From IMG/VR virus record IMGVR_UViG_2534681934_000027: DNA of 13,819 nt; one strand, written 5' to 3'. The position numbers were made by a program. Shown in pieces: positions 6,001-9,000 of this stretch (the stretch's first letter is position 1; every line of letters begins with the position of its first letter). The stretch comes from a virus (taxonomy: Duplodnaviria; Heunggongvirae; Uroviricota; Caudoviricetes).

Positions 6001-9000
6001 GGCCGGCTTCCTGGCTAAACATCAAAAAGGCGATGTTGCCAGCGTATCCGGCACGATGCAGGTAAGCCAGTGGACCGGACAGAACGGAGAAACGCGGCAG
6101 GGCTGGCAGGTTATCGCAGACAGCGTAATCAGTGCCCGCGCGGCACGTCCAGGCGGGAACAGACGCAAAACCACAGGCACACAGGGTAATCAGCCACCAG
6201 CGGGAGGCGATGACCCTTACGGTGATGATATTTCGTTCTGAGGGGGTGACGATGGTACATGACCGCATAGCGGAGGAACTGGAGGCGAAAGGCTTTTACC
6301 GGAGGGCGGCGGCGCGATGGGGTGAAGTCATGCAGCTGGTGGAGACAGACAAGGAACGGCATCACATCACGATGCGACGGCTGGAATGTTCAAGGAAGGC
6401 ACAGAGGGCACCGGAGCCGCCGGATAATTTCGGAGACCTGAAAAAGGCAGTCGATCGCACTTATGCCGAAATGGGTATAGATGGTGCTGGTGATGAAATA
6501 TGGCGCAATTACCAGGACAGCTAATCAAACAGCCGGAGAAATCCGGCTTTTTTTGCACCAGTTGAAACGGTATGGCGCATTACCGGGTTTTCGTCACGGT
6601 CAGGCATAGTTACTATCTGAAACAAACAGACACAACAGAGGAAAAAACAATGCCGATGAAATTTGATGAGATATTAAAACAGCGTGATAAATACCATGCT
6701 GACAACATGGAGACGATGAGCATCAATGATTACCGCGCATTCCTGGAGACGGGCGCACTGATTGAAAAGGATCAGCATGGTTTTGTGAGATGTGCTCTAT
6801 CCGGTGAAATGCTGGCGGTAAATCCTGAACAGATAGATGCATTGATAGAATTTCTGAAAGAGATCAGAGACTGAGCCAGCACACAGCACACATAGCCGGA
6901 GCAATCCGGCTTTTTTGCGCCCAAAAAAAGCCCGATAAGGTCAGAGGGTTCTTATCGGGCTTTTGCATATGAGGTTTTTGGATGCACTGGCGTTCGTGAT
7001 CGGGATAATCATTTCATAATTTGCAACATAACTCAATATCATTGCATAAAATGCAATTCTGATTATAATCAGGACTGGATAAACATCCAGTTATGATTTT
7101 TTTAGTCGAAGAGGAATTTCTTACTATGGCTGAAGAGAAAAAAAGCGGTGTTTCGGTGTACATAAGCCCCGAAATCGTGGAGGTGCTCAAGCAGCGCCAC
7201 AAAAAAAACTATGAAGCTGGCGTTGCGGCTGGACTGGATCCGCTGATGACGCCGGAGCCGTCGATAGGTTCACTTGTACGCTCTTATTTACTTGCGGCGC
7301 TTGGGATGCATAAAAATTATGGGGGTGAATAATGGCAGGCAAAGCAACGGCACTTAACACTAACCAGCTTTTCATGTACCTGAATCGCGGGGATATTGCG
7401 GATTTTAAATTCAGCCCTCTGTTTACCACGCTGTTTTTCCCGAACGTGGCGACATTCAGCACGCAAAACATCATGCTGGATACCCTGGACATTGAAGAAG
7501 TCACCATGTCGGCGTTTTGTTCGCCTATGGTGGGTAGCCAGGTTCAGCGCGATAAAGGGTACGAAACCAGCACAATCAAACCTGGCTACATGAAGCCAAA
7601 GCACGAAATCGATCCAACGAAAACCATCATGCGCATGGCTGGAGAAGATCCGGCACAGCTTAACGACCCTACCTATCGCCGTATGCGCCTGATTACTGGC
7701 AACATGCGCCGCCAGATAAACGCCATTAAGGCACGCGTGGAATGGCTGGCGGTGAATGCGGTAACGACCGGAAAAAACATCATTGAGGGCGAAGGCATAG
7801 AACGCTATGAAATCGACTGGAAAATACCGGAAAACTGCATCATAGAGCAGGCCAAGGGTAAAAAATGGTCCGAGCAGGATAAAGACATGCACGACCCAAT
7901 CTATGACATCGAGCTTTATGCTGATCAGGCTGGTTGCCCCGCAAACGTCATGATTATGGGCGCTGAGGTATGGCGCACATTACGCAGCTTTAAAAAATTC
8001 CGTGAGCTGTACGATCTTTCCCGTGGTTCAGAATCCGCCGCCGAACTGGCCTGTAAAAACCTGGGCGAAGTGGTGAGCTTTAAAGGCTATCTTGGTGATC
8101 TGGCCCTTATCGTCTATTCCGGCAAATACACTGACAGCGATGGTACCGAAAAATATTTCCTTGAGCCTGATTTGCTGGTCCTGGGTAACACCAACAATAA
8201 AGGGCTGGTGGCCTATGGTGCGATAATGGATCAGGAAGCGGTAAGAACGGGCGCAACACAAAACATGTTTTACCCGAAAAACTGGATTGAGGACGGCGAT
8301 CCGGCGATTGAGTACGTGCAGACACACAGTGCACCGCAGCCGGTACCGGCAGATATTCGCAAATTTGTTACCGTCAAAATTGGTTAACGGGGGGATTCTA
8401 TGGACACTCCATACATTGAGTTATTTGCAGGCAGTCAGCAGGTATCCACGACGTTGGTACATTTTGCCGCTGATGCTGGCGTTATTCAGGAATTTACCCC
8501 GCTGATGCTGGCAGACAATGGCGAGTTTAAGCCGTGGGATGGTCAGGAATCTGGCAAGGCTGTTTATCTGACCTCGTACCCTGTGGACACGTCAAAGCAG
8601 AAATCAGCACAGTGTTACAAGACGGGGATATTCAATATTGCCGCCGTTAACTGGCCTGAGAGCGTCGACACCGATGCGAAAAAATGCGCCGCCTTTGCGG
8701 GTTCCGGCGTATCCGTTCAGCCGCTGGCCCGATAAGCAGGGGGAACGATGGCAACGAATGAAAGCATCATGACGCTACCGCTGGCGAGTAAATTTAAAGT
8801 CGAAGCGCGGGCAATGGCTGACAGAGGTTTATCAACCTATGAGGCCGTATATCAACTAAACAAACTGGAAGAGCAGGACAAGCCGTGCGCTGATGCGATT
8901 ATGGCGCTTCATGAGCATAAAGACTATCAGCCGCTGTTGCGTGCAATGGCAAACGTGCCTTGTATCGATGTTGGTACGGCTAAAAGCATCCTTAGCATGA

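Follow-up and report, generated by a model that had tools for sequence, protein, structure and literature searches.

The 13,819-nt stretch of viral DNA analysed here (IMG/VR record IMGVR_UViG_2534681934_000027, hereafter the window) is an Escherichia coli phage-inducible chromosomal island (PICI), that is, a phage satellite, at the roxA/phoQ site, and our subject is one of its small open reading frames (ORFs), ORF74, together with the terminator hairpins T1 and T2 that enclose it. We give about an even chance to a reading in which ORF74 is the distal gene of the satellite's early operon, is carried in E. coli as a recombination module bounded by repeats, and acts on a partner outside the island. 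Genome comparisons showed that T1, the ORF74 leader, ORF74 and T2 form a presence/absence unit of 354–363 bp, occurring in two island backbones and with indel ends that fall exactly in the repeats, and alignments of alleles and homologues showed that ORF74 is a real gene under purifying selection.

Terminator repeats and the ORF74 cassette

A megablast search of positions 6400–7100 against 5,426 complete E. coli genomes returned matches whose ends, in 794 genomes, cluster at 6530, 6552, 6915 and 6924. The cassette as a whole was found at 593 places in 540 genomes, about 10% of the complete E. coli genomes. In the capsid-forming PICI (cf-PICI) of UCPROB-002, perC is followed by a single terminator and then by the control region of an HK97 capsid module, and the cf-PICIs of 2014C-3097, CDC#03-98 and Sakai carry perC, terminator, leader, ORF74 and terminator before that same control region. 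Both layouts recur among further loci that we compared, as perC, terminator and capsid region in L003 and as perC, terminator, ORF74, terminator and the same region in L002, L019 and L021.

Using the cf-PICI capsid protein, we fetched 58 IMG/VR loci, among which 37 were E. coli-type cf-PICIs with sufficient upstream sequence; since retrieval relied on the capsid protein, this sample is unbiased with respect to ORF74, which is present in 17 and absent from 20 of them. The long and short cf-PICI forms differ by a constant 354 nt, and both have a hairpin at −281 nt from the capsid gene. Among islands of the lambda-E type, the typical ones (Nissle 1917, UM146 and three others) contain neither perC nor ORF74, and those with the cassette are nearly clonal, with 99% identity or more throughout (about 359 of 636 places); the block 6924–7100 is conserved at 636 places in E. 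coli.

T1 and T2 rank as the top two terminator-like sites of the entire 13.8-kb window in a terminator scan, with fold energies of −13.2 and −12.5 kcal/mol (z = −3.6 and −2.8 against shuffles) and, in T1, a 7-bp stem with 5 GC pairs. An earlier note on this DNA had placed a strong terminator upstream of ORF74, which T1 confirms. As direct repeats the two hairpins extend over 28 nt at 89% identity with a spacing of 363, and the 22-mer AGCCGGAGNAATCCGGCTTTTT occurs three times in the window (6531, 6894 and 9167), with 0 chance matches in 200 shuffles. The third copy, at 9167–9188, marks this hairpin (T) as the island's general module-boundary terminator. Elsewhere the same hairpin follows SSB, ending the early operon, in Nissle, UM146 and L080, follows perC in cf-PICIs, and closes the capsid gene cluster in the window and in Nissle, so that on these comparisons the 22-nt terminator is a general module-boundary element of the island family.

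The post-SSB and post-capsid copies in Nissle (L004, 3804–3880 and 6244–6320) have about 95 nt in common, of which a GC-rich tail makes up about 70 nt. The whole capsid cluster, which in the window too is followed by a T copy, is thus likewise enclosed by direct repeats, and its loss or exchange could proceed as for ORF74.

Lambdoid phages have conserved boundary or linker sequences at their mosaic joints. The 22-nt terminator is like these in recurring at several module boundaries and in coinciding with recombination breakpoints between backbones; unlike them, it is itself a functional-looking intrinsic terminator and is present as direct repeats within one 10-kb element, an orientation that makes intramolecular deletion possible as well.

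Downstream of ORF74, the earlier note had counted two tandem terminators. Both hairpins, T2 and T3, are real, but they form a convergent rather than a tandem pair, T3 facing the minus strand and belonging to the neighbouring module. T3 folds at −21.7 kcal/mol on the plus strand and −20.3 kcal/mol on the minus strand (z = −3.5 and −4.3); it went unscored by the terminator scan because its loop exceeds 8 nt, and, flanked by 7 A to the left but no more than 4 T to the right, it is better suited to termination on the minus strand; this asymmetry holds across all island variants (6–8 A left, 3–4 T right). It is present in islands that lack ORF74 (L004, L080–L083) and absent from cf-PICIs that bear it (L002, L019, L021), a distribution that places T3 in the capsid-module control region and outside the ORF74 cassette. 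In L080, SSB is followed by T, 7 nt and T3, the same pair as T2/T3 of the window, and in L081 both hairpins have entirely different stems in the same architecture, with the T3 asymmetry kept (A8/T3). Judged from these arrangements, T2/T3 is the native junction of this island type, at which a rightward early-operon terminator faces a leftward control-region terminator.

ORF74 and its satellite family

The ORF74 coding sequence runs from an ATG at 6650 to a stop codon at 6872–6874 and is preceded, at a spacing of 7 nt, by the Shine-Dalgarno sequence AGAGGA (6637–6642). Every distant homologue starts with MP(I/V/T) in alignment with this ATG, which identifies 6650 as the correct start; an alternative ATG at 6572 (100 amino acids, from a mechanical ORF list) is ruled out by these homologue starts. 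Among E. coli alleles, the ratio of nonsynonymous to synonymous substitution rates (dN/dS) is 0.05–0.20, at least 538 of the 540 complete genomes carrying the gene keep its reading frame intact, the start codon and Shine-Dalgarno sequence are conserved, and motifs are kept across genera at about 40% identity, so that the 74-residue ORF of the earlier note is well founded in its existence, its start and the selection acting on it. The GC content of ORF74 is 42.7% and that of its third codon positions (GC3) 0.47, against 50–59% and 0.51–0.62 in its neighbours. The protein is acidic, with an isoelectric point (pI) of 4.8 and a net charge of −6 (family pI 4.6–6.7).

Homology searches, which had been proposed for this gene, gave a divided answer. 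ORF74 matched the phrog_1957 profile over its full length (E 2.3e-42, residues 1–74 against profile positions 1–74 of 82), and homologues were found in satellites; in contrast, scans of ORF74 against Pfam, NCBIfam and PADLOC gave no family match, only sub-threshold noise (DUF7189, NheB), as did the same scans of distant homologues (two homologues in the case of PADLOC), and a tblastn search against 50,697 phage genomes gave zero matches. Word-index and profile searches over 5.8 billion proteins and a full phmmer search over 1.84 billion representatives returned only short hypothetical proteins of about 66–119 amino acids from Enterobacterales and Gilliamella, at 30–48% identity, with no informative fusion protein among the matches. 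A 1383-residue repeat protein, P0019, was judged spurious as a relative. The family shares a conserved D-H-H-G-F motif and the invariant residues Y28 and Q61. A confident alignment-based AlphaFold2 (AF2) model (predicted local distance difference test score, pLDDT, 83.6) shows two helices at the N-terminus, then a beta-hairpin region and a long helix at the C-terminus, and a structural neighbour search with it yielded nothing significant. In the literature, we found no paper that mentions ECs1589, the Sakai equivalent of ORF74, and no expression data for ECs_1589.

Satellites of Klebsiella, Enterobacter, Serratia, Citrobacter, Pectobacterium and Gilliamella also contain members of the family, nearly always placed right behind the origin of replication or early genes and with no terminator upstream. 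Homologues in L005–L014 all lie in cf-PICIs, directly past the origin iterons or the replicase, and in the cf-PICIs of Enterobacter, Kluyvera, Serratia, Leclercia, Phytobacter, Pectobacterium, Gilliamella and Citrobacter, as well as in a Klebsiella island type, the Shine-Dalgarno sequence stands a few tens of nt past the last iteron. A Klebsiella homologue has a DUF927 primase and iterons upstream and a GAAA-loop CCGG hairpin like T downstream. Divergent alleles start about 15 nt after perC, terminator-free, in L068, and about 55 nt after perC, hairpin-free, in L061. These relatives have no terminator upstream and no room for a promoter, and the family is therefore natively operonic and not independently transcribed, contrary to the layout of independent expression read into the window by the earlier note.

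On the minus strand of L061 (4640–4710), directly after the bidirectional hairpin of the ORF74 homologue, lies a convergent mini-ORF of 15 codons, MSENELKKAMFIQQHF, whose ribosome-binding site, AGGAGG, is strong.

Alleles with 98% identity or more are found beside either replicase, RepA helicase or DUF927 primase, and beside either packaging module, lambda-E or HK97. Four island architectures contain the family, namely the lambda-E type, the cf-PICI, a Klebsiella type in which protease and capsid are fused, and a 16-kb element of Arsenophonus. ORF74 is also the most diverged gene shared between islands, at 38–47% identity as against 70–82% for TerL and 62–69% for the capsid protein. In other genera its homologue is directly followed by 0–3 unrelated, mostly convergent genes without known domains, and the variable region before the PICI packaging operon is expected to hold immune systems (bioRxiv 10.1101/2025.02.11.637232). 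Like the variable or 'immune' regions of PICIs and cf-PICIs (bioRxiv 10.1101/2025.02.11.637232; PMC6092414), the ORF74 site lies immediately upstream of the packaging module, in a variable hotspot; unlike the exchanged cargo genes there, the ORF74 family is a conserved gene that borders the hotspot, and PADLOC detected in it no similarity to known defence proteins.

Expression, partner and competing explanations

In our preferred reading, ORF74 represents in E. coli a family of small acidic proteins that is specific to satellites. In most islands its gene closes a rightward operon, as a rule the early/replication operon that depends on AlpA, directly past the origin, and the gene and its own terminator come just before the variable region and the packaging module. 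Within the E. coli lineage the unit of gene and terminator lies behind a second terminator copy, giving the order perC-T1-leader-ORF74-T2, and the 22–28-nt repeats would act as joints at which the unit could be gained, lost or moved between backbones through homologous recombination or slippage. Once the early operon fires after helper-phage induction, ORF74 would be expressed at a reduced level through T1 read-through, and its protein would bind not the island's own DNA or proteins but an external partner, namely a protein of the helper phage or the host. We infer the read-through expression, its timing and the external protein target, the last because ORF74 is independent of modules, specific to satellites and fast-diverging.

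Several observations weigh against this reading. T1 looks efficient, with its 7-bp GC-rich stem and U7, and read-through may be too low for a gene under selection, in which case the conserved 3' part of the leader would be expected to hold a promoter that went unrecognised. About half of the E. coli cf-PICIs and most lambda-E-type islands are without the gene, so ORF74 is dispensable for the satellite cycle. The Arsenophonus homologue follows terL and not the origin, and the position of the family is thus not invariant. Finally, the cf-PICI EcCIEDL933 corresponds to Sakai Sp7 (OI-51), whose ORF74 allele differs from that of the window by one amino acid, and EcCIEDL933 was reported in the cf-PICI paper to leave the titres of its helpers HK106 and HK446 unreduced, an absence of interference that argues against a general anti-helper function of ORF74. 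The same paper describes a mutant of 'hypothetical gene 1792', in the packaging region, in which EcCIEDL933 transfer is severely reduced; this gene may or may not be ORF74.

A more specific proposal, which we consider doubtful, makes the family a previously unrecognised satellite-specific effector that is produced at induction and binds a helper-phage or host protein, for example in an anti-defence, anti-nuclease or helper-reprogramming capacity. If so, an arms race with that partner would account for its rapid divergence and for its spread, as a terminator-bounded module, between unrelated backbones. A protein that targets helper phages or host defences would be a new type of satellite effector; otherwise, ORF74 would be an ordinary accessory gene. 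The phage packaging interference protein Ppi of the Staphylococcus aureus pathogenicity islands (SaPIs) is a small protein encoded between the satellite origin and the packaging operon, is induced, and acts on a helper protein. ORF74 is like Ppi in its place between origin and packaging operon, a purely positional likeness; unlike Ppi, a near-identical ORF74 allele is present in the Sakai counterpart of a cf-PICI reported to be non-interfering.

Phage morons, in the sense of Juhala, Hendrix and colleagues, carry their own promoter and terminator and are inserted between genes that are adjacent in related genomes. ORF74 resembles them as a single small gene, present or absent between modules that adjoin each other in relatives, with a terminator immediately downstream (T2, with analogous hairpins after the homologues in other genera) and a deviant base composition. 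It differs from them in that no promoter of its own was detected immediately upstream, where an identical terminator stands instead and makes it a repeat-bounded recombination module, and in that its family is native to satellites and mostly operonic rather than imported. The moron-like cassette of the earlier note therefore survives as a discrete 354-nt unit with a downstream terminator and low GC, but without the promoter, and the suggestion of imported lysogenic-conversion cargo gives way to a gene of the satellite life cycle or of helper interaction, which better fits a satellite-specific family positionally conserved across genera. Terminators flanking a gene do not by themselves show independent expression.

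We nevertheless weighed the possibility that ORF74 is a true moron, read in the uninduced lysogen from a promoter of its own within the 97-nt leader, whatever the state of the satellite cycle, and conferring a host phenotype such as phage resistance, virulence regulation or stress tolerance, as is said of the neighbouring PerC and of RgdR, the LEE (locus of enterocyte effacement) regulator that we take ECs_1581 to be. The terminators on both sides, the presence/absence polymorphism, a GC content below that of the neighbours, purifying selection despite a place behind T1 and a site in the region expected to hold immune systems (bioRxiv 10.1101/2025.02.11.637232) all speak for it, as does the near-invariance of the 3' 62 nt of the leader among alleles, although this is weak evidence for a promoter because the first third of the coding sequence is equally invariant. 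A sigma-70 consensus scan of the leader (6549–6649) found no promoter, the best manual match being 7/12 (TTTTCG-16-TACTAT); inspection by eye for sigma-32 and sigma-54 patterns found no convincing match in the leader either, and the leader fold is no more stable than shuffles (z +0.86). Together with the lack of Pfam, NCBIfam and PADLOC matches, the genera in which the gene abuts origin iterons or perC with no terminator or promoter space, and a satellite confinement and synteny unlike typical imported cargo, this makes a true moron unlikely. As judged from the leader sequence, ORF74 most likely lacks a strong promoter of its own and is expressed by T1 read-through or from an unrecognised promoter, which may need an activator or use a sigma factor other than sigma-70.

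Two further observations concern this segment. Read-through of T1–T3 driven by AlpA, as by the AlpA of Pseudomonas aeruginosa, was considered and set aside as speculation; the AlpA of the window (PF05930) matches PDB entry 8c3t only, and its comparison with P. aeruginosa AlpA chains gave no match at E ≤ 1. RefSeq lists a 42-residue hypothetical protein, WP_001301569.1, at 6481–6609 of the window, where it overlaps the end of perC and crosses T1; elsewhere it is annotated as a frameshifted 'trigger factor' pseudogene, and most likely the entry is an artefact of annotation.

A small winged-helix-like DNA-binding regulator, acting on the downstream packaging operon as a late switch or binding the origin, appears very unlikely. 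The family profile has a match in PDB to the recognition domain of N.BspD6I, with a whole-sequence E of 2.3e-4, and the model predicts the order helix, helix, beta-hairpin and long C-terminal helix, in a gene that adjoins the origin in most islands and lies upstream of palindrome-rich control regions; the match covers a hairpin-like segment with a domain E of 0.12, too weak for use. We attach similarly little likelihood to a replication-accessory factor co-produced with the replication genes, for instance one that modulates SSB or helicase or that protects replication intermediates. In eight or more genera of cf-PICI hosts, as in the Klebsiella island type, ORF74 is the first gene past the origin, and it stands two genes after SSB in E. 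coli, but the replicase type varies (RepA helicase, DUF927 primase, 783-residue primase), many islands with the same replication genes lack ORF74, and the Arsenophonus copy lies behind terL. In the cf-PICI paper, replication was unaffected in all packaging-module mutants, a set that may or may not include ORF74. That ORF74 is a silent remnant, insulated by T1 and T2 and heading for repeat-mediated deletion, is hardly credible: the strong terminator directly upstream, the missing promoter and the frequent repeat-bounded loss would suit it, but not the low dN/dS, the almost universally intact frame, the conserved start codon and Shine-Dalgarno sequence, or the motifs shared across genera.

PICIs and cf-PICIs are major gene-transfer vehicles in Enterobacterales, and the majority of the small genes they carry have yet to be characterised. 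ECs_1589 now has a defined family and a defined position at the end of an operon beside an accessory hotspot, and a single terminator sequence serving as the recombination joint between modules offers a handle for deletion and exchange experiments. The ORF74 cassette itself is an uncharacterised instance of a known arrangement, tidy and of moderate interest.

The island and its packaging-module control region

Table 1 Features of the window in map order.
Feature	Position	Strand	Details
P4-type integrase	1–1230		
AlpA-family regulator	1605–1793		PF05930
Icd-like remnants			after the AlpA gene, before the DUF4222 gene
DUF4222 protein	3686–3985		corresponds to ECs_1581
RepA-type helicase	3982–5382		
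Origin iterons	5381–5592		between the helicase gene and the 83-aa gene
83-aa gene, then SSB			between the iterons and perC
perC-family gene	6252–6524	+	Pfam PF06069, E 3.9e-43; last early (replication) operon gene before T1
T1	6531–6555	+	hairpin 6531–6548, GAAA loop, T7; left direct-repeat copy
ORF74 leader	6556–6649	+	3' 62 nt nearly invariant among alleles; Shine-Dalgarno 6637–6642
ORF74	6650–6874	+	74 aa, PHROG 1957, equivalent to ECs_1589 in Sakai
T2	6894–6917	+	hairpin 6894–6911, GCAA loop, T6; right cassette end, joint to packaging module
T3	6922–6968	−	15-bp hairpin 6926–6964, A7 left, T4 right; lambda-E-type packaging-module control region
Capsid operon control region	6965–7125	.	AT-rich, 36% GC
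68-aa gene (7126), lambda-E-like major capsid protein, gpD-like decoration protein, 137-aa gene			downstream of ORF74
Third T hairpin copy	9167–9192	+	after the 137-aa gene ending the capsid gene cluster
Nu1-like terS			split by IS3-family element; then 93-aa gene, then phoQ

The window has the features of a PICI, with int, alpA, replicase and origin, and packaging-related genes within about 10–15 kb at a site that prophages do not use (Table 1), and a near-identical island copy is found in the O157:H7 strain PV15-279. The iterons form two sets of the AAAAGTGAGG type, with a 44-nt direct repeat at 5381–5424 and 5549–5592, and this block is expected to be the replication origin of the PICI. Further along the early operon, perC begins 10 nt past the SSB stop codon, and the gap is terminator-free.

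In Sakai and lineage I O157, the same roxA/phoQ site is occupied by a different satellite, the cf-PICI Sp7 (= OI-51). Compared with L019 and L021, the window has an identical AlpA and a nearly identical integrase, with different replicase and packaging modules, which on sequence makes the roxA/phoQ islands a clear case of module swapping on a single integration backbone. This agrees with the lineage-specific variation reported for OI-51 (PMC1890555).

The control region of the capsid operon, between T3 and the 68-aa gene, contains two perfect palindromes, TTGCATAAAATGCAA (7042–7056) and CTGATTATAATCAG (7059–7072), two candidate rightward promoters, TTCATA-18-TATCAT (7013–7042) and TTGCAT-16-TATAAT (7042–7069), and a terminator-like leader hairpin (7073–7092) followed by T7 immediately before the 68-aa gene, a layout reminiscent of promoter-proximal termination or antitermination control. 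Upstream of T3 there is also a conserved leftward promoter-like pair, TTGAGT (7036–7031) and AATGAT (7013–7008) separated by 17 nt, which in L081 takes the form TTGACT-17-AATTAT. Together with T3, this pair may produce a predicted small RNA of about 75–80 nt (from about 7001 to 6925) whose body varies between islands, and one possibility is that such an RNA, divergent from the capsid operon and ended by T3, regulates the late genes of the satellite. An Rfam scan of 6200–7400 gave far-sub-threshold matches only, those within 6922–7036 being to AsxR, AgvB and AgrB.

At the far end of the island, terS is interrupted after about codon 143 of 180 by an insertion sequence (IS) of the IS3 family (9826–11135), which is bounded by 25-nt inverted repeats (9826–9850 and 11111–11135) and encodes transposase ORFs of 108 and 296 amino acids on the minus strand. 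Because of this insertion the island copy in the window is probably defective in its own packaging redirection; in PV15-279 terS is intact. The Nu1-like terS is in addition flanked by a 76-nt inverted repeat (9191–9266 and 11368–11443, 91% complementary), whose arms would lie about 800 bp apart if the IS insertion were removed, and which could be a sequence related to the packaging site, a duplicated control region or an invertible segment.

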